A DNA stretch of 64,000 nucleotides. It comes from Candidatus Kaiserbacteria bacterium. Lineage in GTDB: Bacteria > Patescibacteriota > Minisyncoccia > Phycocordibacterales > JABMNX01. Under the pieces are notes generated by a model. It searched no databases. It was not told the DNA's origin and worked only from the letters and a program-made list of their open reading frames with translations. Position 1 is the stretch's first letter, and the number at the start of each line of letters is the position of its first letter. The stretch spans positions 12,381 to 76,380 of the forward strand of contig JACPLB010000004.1 of assembly GCA_016186705.1 (NCBI GenBank), written 5' to 3'. Below are positions 16,939 through 62,752 of the stretch, piece after piece. Made by a program: the position numbers and the translations under genes.

Positions 16939-17385
16939 TTATTGACCAGCCCGCAGGAAATCTATTAATTTACGAGTTCCTTCTCGCGGGTATACATTTT
17001 CCATTTTTTTAATCTCATTCAGTCCAAGCCAGACAATATGATACTGATTTTGCTCGTTCATTCTTTCTTTTTCGGGACCACTTATCTCTGGAATACCAGA
17101 GTGTGCCTCAATCAAGAAGTAGTGTTCATCTCGATTCCCTTTGTGGGTAGTAATATGAGAAGGAATACTAAGATTTTTTATAGAGAAAATGAACTTATAC
17201 TTTATAACATCCAGATTCAATTCCTCCTTTACCTCTCTTGCAAGGGCCATTTCTACTTCTTCTCCCTCGTCAGCTCCTCCGCCAGGAAATATATAATAAT
17301 CCCGGTCTGGTTTTATACGCCTTATCAACAAGATTTTGTCGCCTTGCAAAATCACTGCTGAAGCTCTCTGTCTTCTACTTTCCAT
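16939..17385 (-). CDS. NUDIX hydrolase
   Basis: Nudix box GGGADEGEEVEMALAREVKEELNL (Gx5Ex7REUxEExGU); 148 aa. Confidence 0.8.
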   Translation of the reverse strand: MESRRQRASAVILQGDKILLIRRIKPDRDYYIFPGGGADEGEEVEMALAREVKEELNLDVIKYKFIFSIKNLSIPSHITTHKGNRDEHYFLIEAHSGIPEISGPEKERMNEQNQYHIVWLGLNEIKKMENVYPREGTRKLIDFLRAGQ

Positions 17386-17392
17386 GGCACTT

Positions 17393-17962
17393 CTACGCCT
17401 TTTTACCTATCCTATGCAACTTTCTATCTTCTAATTTCCTGCACTCTCTATTTATTCTTCTTTCATTTTCATCTAAGCTCGATAAACCATATTTCTTTCT
17501 TCTCTTATCTACATTTCTTTTATTTTTGATTGGGAATGACTTAAATTCTTCTTTTTCGCTCTTTCTGGTAAATTGTGTTCCGAAAACTTGTGGTTTCTTC
17601 TCATGAACTAAAATTCTGTCAGTTAAATAAGCGATATCGGCCGGGTTTATTTCTTTTTTATCCTTTTTGTATATTTCGTTTAGCGTCGCTAAAACTTTTT
17701 TCTGAAACCTCAAATCGTGATCTGCGTGCTGAATTAGAAGCCAAGCTCCATGAGATGCTTTCTTGCCTACTAAAGATATCATCGGAAAACCATATTGTTT
17801 CATAACTCTTTTTAGCCACGTCGTATTCCTCTTATCAACTCTCTTGTCCCATCTAACTTTTCCAGCAATAAATCGTTTCCGCATCATTTGATCTATTCTG
17901 ACTCGCCCTAAAATATCTCTTGCTAATTTTTTGTTAATCATTGTTCTTATGACCCATGACAC
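17393..17962 (-). CDS. Hypothetical basic protein (unknown function) between two NUDIX genes
   Basis: 189-aa ORF, Lys/Arg-rich, central conserved-looking block ...GKKASHGAWLLIQHADHDLRFQKK... The family is not recognised; it lies in AT-rich DNA. Confidence 0.4.
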   Translation of the reverse strand: MSWVIRTMINKKLARDILGRVRIDQMMRKRFIAGKVRWDKRVDKRNTTWLKRVMKQYGFPMISLVGKKASHGAWLLIQHADHDLRFQKKVLATLNEIYKKDKKEINPADIAYLTDRILVHEKKPQVFGTQFTRKSEKEEFKSFPIKNKRNVDKRRKKYGLSSLDENERRINRECRKLEDRKLHRIGKKA

Positions 17963-17965
17963 TTC

Positions 17966-18409
17966 TTATTCTTCTTTCTGTTTCCATACAGATATAACGT
18001 TTTTAGCATACTCAGAAATTTGCGGTAAGTCATTTGAAGGAAACCACATGGCTTCTAAAATTTCACCTTTATCTATCTCGAACTTTTCATTCTCACTTCT
18101 GGCTTTAAAAACTGTGACTCGGTCTCGTTTATATTCACTCGTGGTTAAAAACTCACCAATCCGATTCAACTCTTCAACATTAATTCCAACTTCCTCTTTA
18201 ACTTCCCTTTTTATTGCATCTTCTAAAGTTTCTCCTGTGTGAATTCCCCCTCCGGGAAATGTCCAGAATTTGTGACCATACGTGTTCCTGATCATTAAAA
18301 TTTTACTATTGTGTTGTATGACACATTTCACTCCTCTGGTTTTTGGACGAAAGATAAACCAGTATAAGCGCTGAATGGGGTTGACGAGTTTATATATTAT
18401 CTTTTTCAT
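17966..18409 (-). CDS. NUDIX hydrolase (second copy)
   Basis: Nudix box GGGIHTGETLEDAIKREVKEEVGI; 147 aa. Confidence 0.8.
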   Translation of the reverse strand: MKKIIYKLVNPIQRLYWFIFRPKTRGVKCVIQHNSKILMIRNTYGHKFWTFPGGGIHTGETLEDAIKREVKEEVGINVEELNRIGEFLTTSEYKRDRVTVFKARSENEKFEIDKGEILEAMWFPSNDLPQISEYAKNVISVWKQKEE

Positions 18410-56542: not shown

Positions 56543-56688
56543 ATAATCTTTATTATATCATTTTCTTGAAATATTCGATGTATACTTGCTTATCCTCAAA
56601 AACTTGACAAAGTCTTTAAACCTTAGAGATTAAGGAGAAAAAGGTATATAGTCAAAACAGTATTAAAATATATCGTTTTTCAGAGTCT

Positions 56689-57645
56689 ATGACAGTGTTA
56701 AGGAACAAGAATAAAAGCGGACAAGATATTGTTTACGGATGGGGCAAATGGAGTTCCAAAGATTCTAGGGACCCTCTTCCTGACTTTAGTAATGATTTTT
56801 GGATTAAATTAAAGCCTGTAAAGCGTAAGGTTGAAAATCTAAAAGAGGAATTATTGCTTTACGCCGAGAAATTCAGGGAAATCTTAAAGAAAAGATACAT
56901 TTTTGTCCTGATGAGCGGAGGTCTTGACGGGGAGATTATTGCAAGAACATTTCTGGAGTTAAAAATCCCCTTTACGGCCTTTATATGCGAGTTTACTGAC
57001 TTTTCAAATAAGCACGATATAGATTATGCGAAAAGATTCTGCGACAAGTTCAATGTTGACAAGTACATCTACAGAATGAACAGCGCGGAATTTTATGAAG
57101 AGATTGTTAAAACCCAAAGAAAGGGTGTTATCTTTAATATTTTGGTTGTCCACCAGGTGTATGAAATAGCGTCTTACATCATCAAATCATTGAATGGCTA
57201 TTGCATAAGCACTTTGGGATCCTCTGTTTCATCGTCCACAATAATCAGCCATAATAAGGGAGATCATTTTTTTCATTTTCTCTCGGACAGCTACAAGCTA
57301 AGAACTTTGCTGAGAGGCTTTTATGACCATTTCACCAGCAGTGAGCTGTTACTGGCAAATATCGGCGATGAAATAGCACTAAAAAATTATAAAAAGATAA
57401 CTAATAATGAGGAGGCGATAGAATTGAGAAATAAAATTTATTCTCATTACTACCCTGATTTAGAAAAACGCCCGAAGTATCACGGCTGGGAACATGAAAA
57501 AAGAATACAGTTCATATTCAGAAAAAGGGTTAGGGATGTTTATCCACTGCTTTATCCAGAACACAGGTTTCAGGAATTTAAATTAGGCTACGAACGCGCT
57601 CTTGAATTATTGGGACGAAAAACAATCAAAGATGGAGACAATTGA
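56689..57645 (+). CDS. PP-loop (adenine-nucleotide alpha-hydrolase) ATP-pyrophosphatase family protein of unknown specificity
   Basis: …RYIFVLMSGGLDGEIIARTF… matches the SGGxD(S/G) PP-loop of the QueC/Asn-synthetase/TilS/argininosuccinate-synthase superfamily. The gene and its flanks are markedly AT-rich relative to neighbours. Confidence 0.5.
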   Translation: MTVLRNKNKSGQDIVYGWGKWSSKDSRDPLPDFSNDFWIKLKPVKRKVENLKEELLLYAEKFREILKKRYIFVLMSGGLDGEIIARTFLELKIPFTAFICEFTDFSNKHDIDYAKRFCDKFNVDKYIYRMNSAEFYEEIVKTQRKGVIFNILVVHQVYEIASYIIKSLNGYCISTLGSSVSSSTIISHNKGDHFFHFLSDSYKLRTLLRGFYDHFTSSELLLANIGDEIALKNYKKITNNEEAIELRNKIYSHYYPDLEKRPKYHGWEHEKRIQFIFRKRVRDVYPLLYPEHRFQEFKLGYERALELLGRKTIKDGDN

Positions 57646-57841
57646 CAAAACCGACAAATCTCCGATTCCGCGCTGCAACTACTGCGGCGAATGGAAATGG
57701 GACAAAGGGCTCACCACAAAAGATATAATCCACAGTGTCAAGGATTTAAAAACTGGAGAATGCCAAATCGTCAAGTCTATTTTTACCGTTTGTAAAGACA
57801 GGCAATGCGGGGAATGCCTTGAATTGGCTTACAAATACTAA
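57632..57841 (+). CDS. Small Cys-rich (CxxC...C...C...CxxC) protein, Zn-ribbon-like
   Basis: METIDKTDKSPIPRCNYCGEWKWDKG...CQIVKSIFTVCKDRQCGEC... It overlaps the 3' end of the PP-loop gene. An alternative start at 57602 is possible. Confidence 0.35.
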   Translation: METIDKTDKSPIPRCNYCGEWKWDKGLTTKDIIHSVKDLKTGECQIVKSIFTVCKDRQCGECLELAYKY

Positions 57842-57900
57842 ACAAGGTTTCGTAGAGGTTTTTAAAAACGACGTTTTTAGACTCTTAATCTATCTAAAAA

Positions 57901-58854
57901 TTACACGACCTGAACAAGAGTAGATACCCCATTTCCGCCTGACGGACCTGTAGAACCAGAGGAACCTCCGGGACTTCCACCGGCTCCGCCACCTCCCCCT
58001 GCTCCTCCCGCAACAGATACGGAACCGCTGTTTGATAAAGTGCCTTTATAAAGTAATATAACACGTCCACCTCCTGCCCCGCCGCCGCCATTGCCGCCAC
58101 CGCCTCCCTGACAATCTCCCCCTCCGCTTGCGTTTTCTCCGTTACCTCCCCCTCCGCCGTCTCCTCCGATAGCAGAAATGATACCACTTGCGCCTATTGT
58201 CAGATTGCCTCCAACAATAAGAATTAATGCACCTCCTCTTGCCGTTGAGCCTGCACCTCCCGAACCGCCCTGACCAACTGTGCAACCAGATTCTGGTCCT
58301 CCACCTCCTCCGGCGGCGCCATTGCCTCCCGCACCTCCTGTTCCCCCTCCTCCGGCAGTGCCAGCACTTCCTCCTCCACCGCCTCCAGTCTGGTCTGTAA
58401 CTCCACTTGCTCCGCTTGCCGCGCCTGGCTGCGCTGATCGGTATTTTGAAAAAGTTCCCGTTGGAACTCCCGTGGTCGGCTGATTTGATTCGCTTGGAAA
58501 TAAAGTGTCCGCCGCTGCTCCGTTATTTGCTCCGGGGTCGACAAACCGCGAGACATCAATATCTTCTGCAGTATAAGATACCCCCAAGCCGTTCATGTGC
58601 AATGTCCCGTTGATGGTGCAATTTCCCTTCACGTAAATCAACATGGCTGCGCACGCAGAGCCGGAAGTTAAATTTACTCCGGAATTGATTATCAGAGAAT
58701 TATAATTTTTTAGAGCGACATTGCTTACAGGTGCGATTGTTGTATTCGTGGAAATCGTCACATCACCGTCACTGCCATCCCCAAAATAATTTTCTATCGA
58801 ACCCCCACCGGCGGCGCCGAGGAGTGTTTTGAATGACGTTCCAAAGGGAGACAT
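57901..58854 (-). CDS. Glycine-rich repeat protein (N-terminal ~150-aa domain plus long GGxGG/GGNG solenoid-like repeats), no signal peptide
   Basis: …IENYFGDGSDGDVTISTNTTI… N-terminal domain, then >150 aa of Gly-rich repeats separated by short hydrophobic beta-like blocks (ALILIVGGNLTIG…, RVILLYKGTLSN…). Confidence 0.55.
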   Translation of the reverse strand: MSPFGTSFKTLLGAAGGGSIENYFGDGSDGDVTISTNTTIAPVSNVALKNYNSLIINSGVNLTSGSACAAMLIYVKGNCTINGTLHMNGLGVSYTAEDIDVSRFVDPGANNGAAADTLFPSESNQPTTGVPTGTFSKYRSAQPGAASGASGVTDQTGGGGGGSAGTAGGGGTGGAGGNGAAGGGGGPESGCTVGQGGSGGAGSTARGGALILIVGGNLTIGASGIISAIGGDGGGGGNGENASGGGDCQGGGGGNGGGGAGGGRVILLYKGTLSNSGSVSVAGGAGGGGGAGGSPGGSSGSTGPSGGNGVSTLVQVV

Positions 58855-58873: not shown

Positions 58874-59233
58874 CTAGCTCATATTGAGACCTGCGGCAAA
58901 TCCATACCAAATGGTACCGCCGTCTATCGTAACAAAAGTGAGGATGTCAACGCCGGCGGCAGTCAAGGTTGGGGCTGTTCCTCCTGCCCAATCAACTGAC
59001 GCCGGCCAGTTGACCGTTTGCGACCCGCCGTTTGTGAGAATAAGGGTAAAACTTCCTGCCGTGCCCGACGCGGGAGCGCCGGAAAAAGTAAACGTTGTGG
59101 TAGACGTGTCTATTGTTCCTGTAACAACATTTCCGAGGGCAATATTAATATCTTGAGTACCGCCTCCGATTGAACCAATTGCATTTACGCTCTCGGCGCG
59201 CACAATGATTGGAGATGTAAACTTAATTGCCAT
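58874..59233 (-). CDS. Hypothetical Thr/Gly-rich beta-strand protein
   Basis: MAIKFTSPIIVRAES...TFTFSGAPASGTAGSFTLILTNGG...TIWYGFAAGLNMS. An earlier ATG at 59254 is also possible. It is co-directional with and tightly spaced to its neighbours. Confidence 0.4.
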   Translation of the reverse strand: MAIKFTSPIIVRAESVNAIGSIGGGTQDINIALGNVVTGTIDTSTTTFTFSGAPASGTAGSFTLILTNGGSQTVNWPASVDWAGGTAPTLTAAGVDILTFVTIDGGTIWYGFAAGLNMS

Positions 59234-59489
59234 AGTATAAATCCTTTTTATCAATACTTAAAACCTCTTCTCCTTTTTTGTTATACAATTTTAATTCTGA
59301 GTCGCTCTCAACAACCTTGAAATATTTAAGCATCTTAATGTCGAGTGTTTCTTTTTTATTGAAGAAACTAAGGTACGGGGCAAGAATGTTTCCAAGAACA
59401 AAAGAAACCGATCCAAAAAGCAGAATTTTTAAAAAGTTTCTTCTTTCTCCCGAGATGGGTGGTATATTCTTACGTTTTCCTGTCTCCAT
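59223..59489 (-). CDS. Small protein with a twin-arginine (Tat) signal peptide
   Basis: …SGERRNFLKILLFGSVSFVLGNILA… matches S/T-R-R-x-F-L-K followed by an h-region and AxA-like site. The mature part is ~55 aa. It lies directly downstream of tatA. Confidence 0.5.
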   Translation of the reverse strand: METGKRKNIPPISGERRNFLKILLFGSVSFVLGNILAPYLSFFNKKETLDIKMLKYFKVVESDSELKLYNKKGEEVLSIDKKDLYYGN

Positions 59490-59538: not shown

Positions 59539-59730
59539 CTATTGATGGGACGGTGTGTCTGAATTTTTATCATCTGCCAGCTCCGTTTCAATTTCTTTTT
59601 TCCCTTTTTTGAATTCCCCACTGAATCTTCCTAAACTGCGGGCAAATTCCGTTATCTTCTTGCCGCCAAAAAACAAAATGCCAATGGCAAGTACGATAAT
59701 TAAGATTTCCGGCAATCCAAGTCCAAACAT
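59539..59730 (-). CDS. tatA: Sec-independent protein translocase TatA/E
   Basis: MFGLGLPEILIIVLAIGILFFGGKKITEFARSLG is the canonical TatA TM plus amphipathic helix. Confidence 0.85.
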   Translation of the reverse strand: MFGLGLPEILIIVLAIGILFFGGKKITEFARSLGRFSGEFKKGKKEIETELADDKNSDTPSHQ

Positions 59731-59740
59731 ATATTAAGTG

Positions 59741-60490
59741 TTATTTACTGATAATAATTCCGACCAAATATAAAGTGACAAGGGGCAGGGACAAGAATGC
59801 CATTGAGACTCCGCTTCCATCCGGTGTTATGATGGCGGAAAATAGTAAAAATGATATGAGTGCGTACCGCCACTGTTTTTTCCAGAAATGTTCGGGCGTT
59901 AATCCTATGCGGCTTAAGAGAAACATAAACACCGGCAATAAAAATGATACGCCAGTGACAATAACGATTGAAAAGACAAGACTGATGAATTCGGGTACGG
60001 AGAAGAGCAAGGTGGCTCCGATTGCTGATGCATAGGTATACAGAAAAGAGAGCGTCGGCGGAATAATAACAGTGTAAGCAAAAAATGCTCCGAGAAGAAA
60101 CAAAAGCATTGACGGAAAGAGTGTCATGCTCAATAATTTCCGTTCATGAAGATGTAGTGCCGGTATCATATAAGTGGTTATTTTGTACAAAAAATACGGG
60201 AGTGTGAGAAGCAGTGACAATAGTGTGGCAATCAGCGCCTGTGATACAAATGCGCTTATGGGGTTGGTAACCACAAGCTCAACATTGTCAGGCATCAGAT
60301 CATTCTTCATCTTCTCAAAAAGAATTGCTGAAAAAGACTGCTTGTCCGGGACGGGAAACGGGAACAAAATACCGCCGATTTTGACATTCGTAAACCCGAA
60401 GAAAAAGAAAAAGGCGGAAAGTAAAAGAATGCTGATGCCCAAGTGAAGTATGGCGCTTCTCAGTGTGCGCCATTCAGTTGCGAATGCCAT
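59741..60490 (-). CDS. tatC: Sec-independent protein translocase TatC
   Basis: Six-TM protein with the TatC signature …LTPEHFWKKQWRYALISFLLFSAIITPDGSGVSMAFLSLP…. Confidence 0.85.
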   Translation of the reverse strand: MAFATEWRTLRSAILHLGISILLLSAFFFFFGFTNVKIGGILFPFPVPDKQSFSAILFEKMKNDLMPDNVELVVTNPISAFVSQALIATLLSLLLTLPYFLYKITTYMIPALHLHERKLLSMTLFPSMLLFLLGAFFAYTVIIPPTLSFLYTYASAIGATLLFSVPEFISLVFSIVIVTGVSFLLPVFMFLLSRIGLTPEHFWKKQWRYALISFLLFSAIITPDGSGVSMAFLSLPLVTLYLVGIIISK

Positions 60491-60652: not shown

Positions 60653-60994
60653 TTAGACCTCTTTTTTCCAAAATTGATGTAGTATCTTGCACGGTTCAAT
60701 AATGCGAGGGTCTCTCACCGTATAATACATATTTCTTCCATCCCGCCGCACCTTTACTAGATAATGTGCGCGGAGGATGGCTAAATGCTGGGAAAGGTTT
60801 GCTTTGCGAATCTTAAGGGCCTTTCGGAGTTCTTCAACTGTTAATTCCCTCTTTTTAAGAATATTTAGAATTTCAAGGCGTTTATGATTGGCTAAAATTC
60901 TGTAAATTAAGGCGTTCCTTTCGTACGTTTCTTGCGGAAATGGAGAAAGGTGTTTTATGGCACGTATACTGTTTCGTTTTTTTGCTTTTTTCAT
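60653..60994 (-). CDS. ArsR/SmtB-family HTH transcriptional regulator
   Basis: …LANHKRLEILNILKKRELTVEELRKALKIRKANLSQHLAILRAHYLVKVRRDGRNMYY… (winged HTH of the ArsR family). Confidence 0.8.
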   Translation of the reverse strand: MKKAKKRNSIRAIKHLSPFPQETYERNALIYRILANHKRLEILNILKKRELTVEELRKALKIRKANLSQHLAILRAHYLVKVRRDGRNMYYTVRDPRIIEPCKILHQFWKKEV

Positions 60995-61618: not shown

Positions 61619-62752
61619 TTATTGAGATTCAGTTGTCGTTGCGGTTTCTTCTGTACTCGACGGAGTCGAGCTTTCAGGAGAGGCGTTTTCAGAATCAAGA
61701 GTGGTTTCCGTTGTTGTTGCAGATTCGTCTGAAACCGGGGTCGTTGATGCGGTTGAAGTAATTCCGGTGCCGACAATTACAGTGCGCTCCGCAGTGCCGG
61801 TATTCCCCGCCTGGTCGGTCGCGCTGTAGGTAATGATATGCGTTCCGTCAGATGACGTATCGACATTGACATTCGTTACATCTGCACCGTTGACTTTAAA
61901 GTGAATGCCGAGATTGTCACTTACATTGTCCGTTACGACTGCTCCAAGGTCAACGTATGATGAGCCGACAGAAATTTCCGCAGGATTATTTCCGTTAACG
62001 GTGATGACCGGCGGCGCGGTATCTGAAGAAGAAGTCACAGTCGAAGCGGTTTGGGTATCGCTCTCGGCAAGCAATTCTCGCACCGCCTCCTCTACAATCT
62101 GCCTTATCTCTTCTCTGCTTGGGGCGGGAGGTGTCGTTGCTACCGCCTCCTCTTGAGGAGGGACTTCGGCGACATGGGGAGGAGAAACTCCCGCCGCGAC
62201 TGGCGGTTTCTCTTCAGAGATAACCGGGACATATCCTTCGAAAATTTCCTCTTTCGGGCTTAACAGCTTCCCAACAAGACCGGAGTATTCCGTCGTTGCG
62301 ATTTTCTGCGTCACCCCCTTATTTCTCTCTACCGTCTGCGCTTCCCTAAAATACGAGAGTTTCGCATCGACAACTTGTCCGAGCTGTTCTGCAACATATC
62401 GCCCTAAGTCACGCCTCCCAAGCGCTACCTTTGACACAGTGAGCACTTCTTTTACCGTGTCGTTTTTCCAGACGTAATCTTTAACGGCAATCGTATTGTA
62501 CGTGTATGTAACATAGTATGAAGTATTGTCTTCTTCAACCGAGACGACCCGGAGCTCCGGATCAAAGGTGTCTATATTCGCAGAGACAATAAAACTATTG
62601 TCAACTGAACGCACAATTGTTTGACTTGAGAGAACCGCGTCGCGGGCGTCAGGACTTGCCGCAAATGCCGCGCCGGCGCCGAGGAAAATAACCCCAAATA
62701 TAATTGGAACCGCGTTATGGTATGTAATGAAATGTATAAGCTTCTGAAGCAT
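61619..62752 (-). CDS. Secreted protein with an Ig-like (HYR/DUF5011-like) domain and Ser/Thr-rich C-terminus
   Basis: Signal peptide (…IIFGVIFLGAGAAFAAS); …DNLGIHFKVNGADVTNVNVDTSSDGTHIITYSATDQAGNTGTAERTVIV…; C-terminal TSTASTTPVSDESATTTETT low-complexity tail. Confidence 0.55.
   Translation of the reverse strand: MLQKLIHFITYHNAVPIIFGVIFLGAGAAFAASPDARDAVLSSQTIVRSVDNSFIVSANIDTFDPELRVVSVEEDNTSYYVTYTYNTIAVKDYVWKNDTVKEVLTVSKVALGRRDLGRYVAEQLGQVVDAKLSYFREAQTVERNKGVTQKIATTEYSGLVGKLLSPKEEIFEGYVPVISEEKPPVAAGVSPPHVAEVPPQEEAVATTPPAPSREEIRQIVEEAVRELLAESDTQTASTVTSSSDTAPPVITVNGNNPAEISVGSSYVDLGAVVTDNVSDNLGIHFKVNGADVTNVNVDTSSDGTHIITYSATDQAGNTGTAERTVIVGTGITSTASTTPVSDESATTTETTLDSENASPESSTPSSTEETATTTESQ

Follow-up and report, generated by a model that had tools for sequence, protein, structure and literature searches.

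Positions 56,543 to 57,841 of a 64,000-nt stretch of a Candidatus Kaiserbacteria contig (JACPLB010000004.1; the whole stretch is called the window here) raise the question of what a PP-loop ATP pyrophosphatase is doing beside a very small cysteine-rich protein whose gene overlaps its own. An earlier interpretation drawn from the DNA letters only (the sequence-only reading) had described two open reading frames (ORFs) at this place, one encoding a 318-aa PP-loop enzyme and the other an overlapping protein of 69-79 aa, and had seen in them a compact, horizontally acquired modification or defence module that is not a known system. Both reading frames, referred to as ORF-A and ORF-B in the following, are present as described and the pair indeed corresponds to no known system. 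However, it is not a two-gene module: two phage fibre genes accompany it, and its relatives add an Asp/Arg-hydroxylase and a 2-oxoglutarate (2OG) oxygenase.

The explanation that we favour, if only with slightly more confidence than doubt, is that the pair represents one half of a cassette of about 2.6 kb (56.7-59.25 kb) derived from a phage tail-fibre module, and that ORF-A and ORF-B mature the Gly-rich fibre protein encoded next to them. The cassette would stem from a tailed phage; it now resides between gap and tatAC in a bacterium of the candidate phyla radiation (CPR). It consists of two convergent units, namely a fibre pair (a protein with a tail-fibre C-terminal domain and a Gly-rich, adhesin-like protein) and an enzyme unit (ORF-A and ORF-B). 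The features of the locus are as follows.

56543-56688, plus strand: upstream intergenic region of ORF-A; local DNA outside the shared block, without alignment to the archaeal copy
56689-57645, plus strand: ORF-A, 318 aa; stand-alone PP-loop ATP pyrophosphatase resembling asparagine synthetase B (AsnB), of an uncurated, mostly phage-borne family
56914-56934, plus strand: PP-loop motif SGGLDGE, residues 76-82 of ORF-A, from family alignments
57166-57479, plus strand: 314-nt tract with perfect nucleotide identity to the Woesearchaeota copy, inside the 89%-identical block
57632-57841, plus strand: ORF-B, 69 aa, Cys-rich; overlaps ORF-A by 14 nt; probable zinc-ribbon partner
57901-58854, minus strand: Gly-rich 317-aa phage fibre/adhesin-like protein; matches in the archaeal contig L001, in the phage contig L084 and to phrog_13336
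58874-59254, minus strand: 126-aa protein, essentially one phage tail-fibre C-terminal domain (PHROG and tblastn matches)
59223-59489, minus strand: 88-aa protein with a twin-arginine signal; lies beyond the end of the L001 contig, candidate member of the cassette
59539-60490, minus strand: tatA (59539-59730) and tatC (59741-60490), by NCBIfam tatAE and TatC matches; flanking host genes, context only

The block and its archaeal copy

Searches of 5.8 billion proteins returned a single close homologue for each of the two proteins: P0002, 87% identical to ORF-A (whose product is identical to the NCBI hypothetical protein HYW58_02110), and P0003, 93-94% identical to ORF-B. The two are encoded side by side on a 17-kb contig of a Candidatus Woesearchaeota archaeon (L001, CAYXIC010000008.1), where P0003 occupies the same position as ORF-B and the 14-nt overlap is kept. 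The contig carries rpoH (Rpb5_C), rpoB with Rpb2_4/5 domains, rpoA and an archaeal-type nusA. By blastn, the window aligned to it in three collinear segments: the ORF-A/B region (56725-57845) with 89.3% nucleotide identity, the Gly-rich gene (57892-58794) with 79% and the fibre-like gene (58875-59076) with 68%, this last segment being cut off where the archaeal contig ends. In everything that we searched, this archaeon was the only other genome with the block. The 89% nucleotide identity to an archaeal block and the absence from all else that was searched support the horizontal acquisition that had been proposed.

The island had been delimited at 56543-57841. This DNA is foreign, but the boundaries need revision on both sides: homology to the archaeal contig starts only at about 56725, within codon 13 of ORF-A, and although this first stretch stops at the stop codon of ORF-B, the foreign block as aligned by blastn continues past 57841, at least to 59076. 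The low GC content also holds, with 0.367 for ORF-A, the third lowest value, against a mean of 0.484 (standard deviation 0.047) for the window's 56 genes that encode 100 aa or more. In tetranucleotide usage, 56543-57841 deviates with z=3.8, a distance exceeded in the window only by the region at 16.5-18.4 kb. The claimed sharp drop relative to the flanks is weaker on the Tat side, where the tat genes and an ArsR gene are fairly AT-rich as well (GC 0.39-0.43). A single weak sigma-70-like site upstream of ORF-A (56624-56652) is not taken as evidence of function.

The archaeal copy contains two additional genes with the domains Asp_Arg_Hydrox and 2OG-FeII_Oxy_3 (L001 11129-12409), inserted exactly between the ORF-B stop codon and the Gly-rich gene, where the window has a spacer of only 59 nt. 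Within ORF-A, 314 nt are identical between the copies (57166-57479 of the window, 10448-10761 of L001). When the 122 mismatches were permuted in 20,000 trials, the longest identical run was 46 nt on average and 125 nt at most. Because the observed run is longer than any obtained by random placement of mismatches, the block is a mosaic, and the identical tract points to a shared gene pool in which recombination or gene conversion took place recently. The tract spans approximately residues 160-264 of ORF-A, the most variable part of the family and the least confidently modelled.

The ratio of non-synonymous to synonymous substitution rates (dN/dS) between the copies is 0.18 for ORF-A, 0.079 for ORF-B and 0.13 for the Gly-rich protein, which retains 83% amino acid identity. 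For the 126-aa protein, the non-synonymous and synonymous proportions (pN and pS) over 68 codons were 0.18 and 0.78, the latter saturated. All reading frames are intact in both genomes, and these values show that all four genes have been under purifying selection since the two copies diverged.

The PP-loop enzyme family and its partners

ORF-A belongs to the PP-loop superfamily by its SGGLDGE motif, by a match to Pfam Asn_synthase above the cut-off (23.9 bits against 21; residues 73-141 only, which is the PP-loop part) and by its fold matches, which at E<1e-3 are all PP-loop enzymes. The last position of its PP-loop is Gly, where the superfamily motif has Ser/Thr. The motif FVLMSGGLDGEII is present in ORF-A. 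Apart from Pfam, PP-loop matches from NCBIfam, PHROGs and PADLOC were sub-threshold only, and the earlier view of a PP-loop enzyme with no recognisable curated family is borne out. An exhaustive HMMER search of 1.84 billion cluster representatives yielded 506 relatives at E<1e-3, 90 of them at E<1e-10. With few exceptions these relatives stand alone and are 260-320 aa long, with 25-35% identity across approximately residues 35-285. In family alignments S76, G77, G78 and D80 are invariant and E82 nearly so, and the further nearly invariant positions of the family (SGGxD.E, NxHD, A..FC with Cys118, G177, E219 and RxKxxGxE) are all found in ORF-A, which places it in an uncurated, mostly phage-borne PP-loop family. 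The members match Asn_synthase, QueC, ATP_bind_3, NAD_synthase, TilS, MnmA and LarE far below the respective cut-offs and in the ATP loop only, and no curated family covers them. What emerges is a large family, 500 or more clusters at 50% identity, of AsnB-like enzymes that stand alone, are viral for the most part and lack a curated model. Our literature searches found no paper on this family or on any fibre-linked PP-loop enzyme.

An AlphaFold2 model of ORF-A from 13 sequences has a confident core (predicted template modelling score 0.70, predicted local distance difference test (pLDDT) 62). Its nearest solved structures are AsnB, carbapenam synthetase and beta-lactam synthetase with template modelling (TM) scores of 0.38-0.44, followed by NAD synthetase, TtuA and LarE. 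The best structural matches of all are uncharacterised proteins of uncultured tailed phages with full-length TM scores of 0.54-0.66. In IMG/VR we found 227 relatives of the family and fetched 77 loci; a single-protein scan of that database gave no close relative of ORF-A, and tblastn with ORF-A, the Gly-rich protein and the phage member P0011 gave no match in 50,697 GenBank phage genomes. Two or more PP-loop paralogues occur in 35 of 82 loci (the 77 IMG/VR loci plus L001-L005). By its motifs and its structural matches, ORF-A is a member of this family and has its affinities with phages.

The relatives nearest to ORF-A lie beside fibre-like or tail genes. The closest after the archaeal copy, P0004, comes from a contig of 1.8 kb, where its gene follows an ORF whose C-terminus is fibre-like. 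The second-closest, P0005 (E 1e-34), is found on a 48-kb siphophage contig (L084), directly behind a lambda-like tail module with TMP_2, DUF1833, NlpC/P60 and a 1321-aa GpJ. GpJ is followed there by a 306-aa protein, a 294-aa Gly-rich protein, a 2OG-FeII_Oxy_3 protein, a 206-aa protein, the PP-loop enzyme and an Asp_Arg_Hydrox protein. The Gly-rich protein is 54-56% identical to those of the window and the archaeon (54%, 2e-67, against the archaeal one), the PP-loop enzyme 31-33% identical to its two counterparts (33%, 4e-49, against the archaeal one) and the Asp_Arg_Hydrox protein 35% identical to the archaeal one (9e-41). Gly-rich fibre protein, PP-loop enzyme, Asp/Arg-hydroxylase and 2OG oxygenase, which this phage and the archaeal copy share, have thus been passed on together as one set that derives from a phage tail module. 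On two T4-like contigs (L003 and L105), family members are located between fibre genes (Peptidase_S74 and GP38-type Gly-rich) and gp13/gp14. Both of these contigs have two tandem overlapping PP-loop paralogues of about 340 and then about 270 aa upstream of gp13 (L003 8998-10834, L105 230-2012), an arrangement that suggests hetero-oligomers or successive steps.

In the 77 viral loci, the most frequent neighbours of the PP-loop genes were FA_desaturase-like genes (38), GNAT-like genes (30), an unassigned family of approximately 207 aa (29) and Asp_Arg_Hydrox genes (26); MCD-like and radical SAM genes also recur. Moreover, we identified fusions of the PP-loop domain with Asp_Arg_Hydrox (P0063), with GNAT domains (P0102, P0150) and with a methyltransferase (P0022). 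Because of these fusion proteins and recurrent neighbours, the PP-loop enzyme is regarded as one step of a tailoring pathway that involves several enzymes. Its coupling to Asp_Arg_Hydrox proteins has independent support from fusions and from neighbourhoods. A non-fibre context, that of a metabolic island, is exemplified in the wider family by L004 (2194-5648), where P0155 is encoded between an FA_desaturase-like gene, a 449-aa gene and an S-adenosylmethionine decarboxylase (AdoMet_dc) gene.

ORF-B, the fibre genes and the surroundings

ORF-B can be read as 69 aa from an ATG at 57632 or as 79 aa from a TTG (57602-57841, plus strand). Over 69 codons it differs from P0003 by 15 synonymous and 7 non-synonymous substitutions, and it is a real gene, as the resulting dN/dS shows purifying selection. 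The protein had been described as having six cysteines. It is Cys-rich, but five are conserved in the single homologue and C44 is replaced by Phe there. The conserved residues follow the layout C15-x2-C18 ... C54-x4-C59-x2-C62, so that both copies have the two CxxC knuckles of a predicted zinc ribbon (C15-x2-C18 and C59-x2-C62) together with C54, and this C-x2-C ... C-x4-C-x2-C pattern suggests that ORF-B is such a protein. It had no match among Pfam, NCBIfam, PHROG or PADLOC families, and its AlphaFold2 model is unusable (pLDDT 44).

The pairing of a PP-loop enzyme with a Cys-rich mini-protein had been likened to the logic of several modification systems, but it is not a trait of this enzyme family. 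The two genes do occur together in one other genome, the archaeon, but every other PP-loop locus examined (77 from IMG/VR as well as L003 and L004) lacks an ORF-B homologue. Small CxxC-rich ORFs showed no enrichment beside family members (2 of 40 adjacent; background, 7 of 720), and a fused Cys-rich extension is absent from all 159 members inspected for one. ORF-B is a lineage-specific addition, translationally coupled to ORF-A. Separately, several metagenomic phage-like contigs encode Cys-rich proteins (5-10 Cys, 98-207 aa) directly downstream of homologues of the Gly-rich protein (L091 2086-2382, L094 9350-9973, L096 7208-8322 and L098 2488-3027). They have no detectable relationship to ORF-B and may be fibre-assembly or metal-binding partners.

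The Gly-rich protein has a conserved N-terminal domain (FGDGSDG.VTI...NCTINGTLHM) followed by Gly-rich repeats, is matched by phrog_13336 at 5e-9 and has homologues in 18 metagenome contigs; a scan of IMG/VR with its N-terminal domain gave no match. The 126-aa protein is matched by PHROG tail-fibre families down to 7e-14 and is by tblastn about 50% identical to the tail-fibre C-termini of Roseobacter and Microcystis phages. Its homologues, of 189-680 aa, are encoded directly upstream of a Gly-rich homologue in at least eight metagenomic contigs, and this order, fibre gene then Gly-rich gene, is that of the minus strand of the window. The PHROG and tblastn matches, the recurring order and the location of the Gly-rich homologue of L084 behind tape-measure and GpJ genes identify the pair as part of a phage tail-fibre module. 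A template/variable-repeat pair suggestive of a diversity-generating retroelement was not detected in 55.5-60.6 kb.

In the window the block is flanked by bacterial housekeeping genes on both sides within one contig: gap and rpiB- and rpe-like genes (read from their translations) on one side, and tatAC, an ArsR-family regulator and an Ig-like surface protein on the other. The flanks had been suggested as a place to look for attachment sites, and no att-type direct repeats beyond chance were found; a tRNA integration site was likewise absent within 15 kb. The immediate neighbours of the cassette, to which the look for phage genes was confined, include no recognisable integrase, capsid or terminase gene. 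A complete or integrated prophage was considered and set aside on the lack of an integrase, of att repeats and of a nearby capsid or terminase, again among these immediate neighbours.

Between tatA and the fibre-like gene, and overlapping the start of the latter, lies the 88-aa ORF, on the same strand as both. It has a textbook twin-arginine signal (GERRNFLK) and a match to TM_PetC at 1.8e-6, below the cut-off. The genes from tatC through tatA, the 88-aa ORF and the fibre-like gene to the Gly-rich gene could form a single minus-strand operon. Both copies of the cassette abut tatA and tatC, on opposite sides and with opposite order of these two genes (59539-60490 in the window, 8959-9798 in L001). 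The two TatC proteins are only 27% identical, and that of the window scores slightly higher on the archaeal TatC model, that of the archaeal genome higher on the bacterial one. Coincidence, insertion preference or a functional link might account for the adjacency.

Elsewhere in the window, the ArsR-family regulator is located at 60653-60994, and the entire stretch of 59.2-61 kb is of below-average GC. A few genes beyond the tat operon, 61619-62752 (minus strand) encodes a 377-aa protein with a bacterial surface Ig-like/HYR domain. The most deviant composition in the window is found at 16939-18409 (tetranucleotide z 4.2, gene GC 0.34-0.39), where two NUDIX hydrolase genes surround a DUF6624 gene and are followed by a serine-hydrolase gene; this region may be a further acquired island.

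Explanations weighed and known systems compared

If the cassette is what we propose, ORF-A would adenylate a carboxylate with ATP and an amine would then attack it, giving an amide, lactam or isopeptide, as expected by analogy from the AsnB-type fold. Its relatives would act beside an Asp/Arg-hydroxylase-type cupin, a 2OG oxygenase of the prolyl 4-hydroxylase type, GNATs and methyltransferases, and the two oxygenases would represent additional maturation steps that were lost from the window copy. ORF-B would probably serve as a zinc-binding accessory or substrate-recruiting subunit. The substrate in the ORF-A lineage would most likely be the Gly-rich fibre protein, so that the reaction would amount to post-translational maturation of a receptor-binding protein. 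We favour this substrate because window, archaeon and phage L084 have all inherited the Gly-rich protein along with the enzyme, and because both units stayed together through a transfer between domains.

A number of observations count against this explanation. The window copy has neither oxygenase, and the archaeal contig comes from a co-assembly with the cassette at its end, so that a chimeric join is possible. Morons classically accumulate just downstream of tail-fibre genes, and the adjacency of enzyme and fibre genes may be physical only. The link to fibres depends on the ORF-A subclade (window, L001, L084 and perhaps L083) and on the positions in T4-like contigs, whereas a PP-loop gene was found in none of the 17 other metagenomic Gly-rich loci, many of them on short contigs, and a Gly-rich homologue is missing from all 77 viral PP-loop loci; the fibre pair does not depend on the enzyme for its occurrence. 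After the motif Asp, ORF-A has Gly and the family consensus Ser, and the model is of moderate quality, with residues 178-209 not modelled. Finally, there is no signal peptide and there are no other virion or secretion genes to explain how a fibre would be displayed on the cell.

The main rival shares the phage origin and differs in the substrate. The family would then comprise phage accessory enzymes of the auxiliary-metabolic-gene type that remodel a molecule of the host envelope or a small molecule (for instance an aminolipid, lipid A or a compound resembling polyamines), and the fibre adjacency would reflect the moron hot spot. It draws on the commonest neighbours in the viral loci (FA_desaturase-like, GNAT-like, Asp_Arg_Hydrox, MCD-like and radical SAM) and on the FA_desaturase and AdoMet_dc genes beside the PP-loop gene of L004. 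The Asp_Arg_Hydrox family includes the lipid hydroxylases LpxO and OlsC, OlsE resembles desaturases and OlsB is an acyltransferase of the GNAT type. We nevertheless regard this rival as unlikely: lipid genes are absent from the ORF-A subclade, the cassette that crossed domains kept its fibre genes with the enzyme, and lipid metabolism is very limited in CPR and DPANN organisms. The view that phage-derived genes are decaying here without current function, or that the locus is an assembly artefact, would fit the missing phage hallmark genes nearby, the missing oxygenases and the shortness of the fibre-domain protein (126 aa against 189-680 aa in phage homologues). Its chance appears very slim, given four intact frames in both genomes under strong purifying selection since their divergence and, within one contig, housekeeping genes on both sides.

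The remaining alternatives start from the pair itself. As a system related to ribosomally synthesised and post-translationally modified peptides (RiPPs) or to anti-phage defence, as the sequence-only reading had proposed, it would use ORF-B as substrate peptide or effector. The 14-nt overlap kept in both copies and the very strong purifying selection on ORF-B agree with this, as do a weak PADLOC QueC match (17 bits) and weak matches of a lasso-type macrolactam cyclase model to 4 of 60 family members. However, the QueC match is confined to the ATP loop; neither locus has a lasso B-protease, QatA/B/D or another defence gene; and ORF-B is nearly invariant over its whole length, with structural zinc-ribbon Cys spacing and no leader/core pattern. 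In addition, the other PP-loop loci examined have no ORF-B homologue, and no family member has a fused Cys-rich extension. Neither the peptide-modification nor the defence version is supported, and we hold this alternative to be highly unlikely. The slimmest chance of those considered belongs to nucleic-acid modification by a QueC-like 7-deazaguanine enzyme or a TilS/MnmA/TtuA-like tRNA enzyme, with ORF-B acting as a zinc finger in trans. QueC, TilS, MnmA, TtuA and LarE are indeed among the weak PP-loop matches, and QueC and TtuA contain zinc-binding Cys clusters. Those matches, on the other hand, cover the N-terminal ATP loop only and are far below family cut-offs, while the best full-length structural matches are AsnB-type enzymes. 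A single Cys (C118) is conserved in the family, hence there is no Fe-S site; FolE, QueD, QueE or DpdA genes are not found nearby; and the gene occurs in two genomes only and is not syntenic in relatives. It had been foreseen that a syntenic housekeeping tRNA enzyme beside a non-coding small ORF would speak against a special module, and the two-genome distribution and the dN/dS of 0.079 for ORF-B point the other way.

If the archaeal contig is not chimeric, the 89% nucleotide identity and the identical tract are evidence of very recent gene flow between ultra-small CPR and DPANN symbionts, in genes that plausibly mediate attachment. The furthest-reaching version is that episymbionts of both groups captured a phage receptor-binding cassette (fibre domain, Gly-rich adhesin and an ATP-dependent maturation enzyme with a zinc-ribbon subunit), still exchange it and use it as a surface attachment device. 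In that version the PP-loop family, together with the Asp/Arg-hydroxylases fused to it or encoded nearby, would constitute a hitherto unrecognised system for post-translational modification of phage fibres, which would give the abundant hydroxylases of marine phages a function. This we consider quite unlikely.

Among known systems, the C-terminal domains of AsnB, beta-lactam synthetase and carbapenam synthetase resemble ORF-A in the SGGxD PP-loop and are its best full-length matches among solved structures, and the same chemistry, carboxylate adenylation followed by amine attack, would be expected by analogy. ORF-A differs from them in the lack of an N-terminal glutaminase domain, in length (about 300 against about 500 aa), in the modest TM scores of 0.38-0.44 and in the C-terminal motifs RxKxxGxE and conserved Cys118, which are specific to its family. 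The model for AsnB itself (TIGR01536) gave 19.2 bits against a cut-off of 267.1, over profile positions 241-344 only, and was rejected. Closer in kind are the "asparagine synthase-like" proteins of uncultured phages (BFVD A0A6J5TAF3, A0A6J7WV94 and others; phrog_16728 region), which have the length and the family of ORF-A and TM scores of 0.54-0.66. They are 17-35% identical to it, have no ORF-B-like partner and are mostly encoded in accessory-gene islands and not beside a Gly-rich fibre gene.

QueC and QatC share the PP-loop ATP-binding region, and QueC depends on a Cys4 zinc site, whereas here the zinc-type Cys pattern is on a separate protein and Qat partners or deazaguanine pathway genes are missing. 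A Qat-type assignment was discarded on a PADLOC QueC match of 17.3 bits (positions 5-71 of 190) and on the neighbours, which are gap, fibre genes and tatAC in the window and oxygenases in L001. The housekeeping tRNA enzymes TilS, MnmA, TtcA/TtuA and ThiI were also dismissed (tRNA_Me_trans at E=0.15; presence in two genomes only); three conserved Fe-S Cys define TtuA/Ncs6, and here C118 alone is conserved. For lasso-peptide cyclases, the model NF033561 weakly matches distant family members and does not match ORF-A, no protease gene is present in either locus, and the two copies of ORF-B are 93% identical from end to end.

The fibre half of the cassette is reminiscent of gp37/gp38 of the T-even type, in which a fibre C-terminal-domain protein is likewise followed by a Gly-rich protein of about 300-400 aa, and the T4-like contig L003 has, ahead of its PP-loop genes, a gene for a Gly-rich protein with a Pfam GP38 match. 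The likeness is architectural only, since the Gly-rich protein of the window has no BLASTP similarity to that GP38-like protein and no match to Pfam GP38. The enzyme half recalls marine phages. Oxygenase and hydroxylase genes are abundant and functionally unassigned in cyanophages and pelagiphages (PMC3037559, PMC7029224), and an Asp/Asn beta-hydroxylase is a pelagimyophage core gene of unknown role (PMC7029224). Neither study describes a PP-loop partner or connects these genes with fibres, and the window copy has lost or never had its oxygenases. Nevertheless, the enzyme families of the 2OG-Fe(II) oxygenase and Asp/Asn beta-hydroxylase sets of marine myophages are the same that neighbour and fuse to the PP-loop family, and these fusions and neighbourhoods provide a testable handle on gene sets that have long been unexplained.

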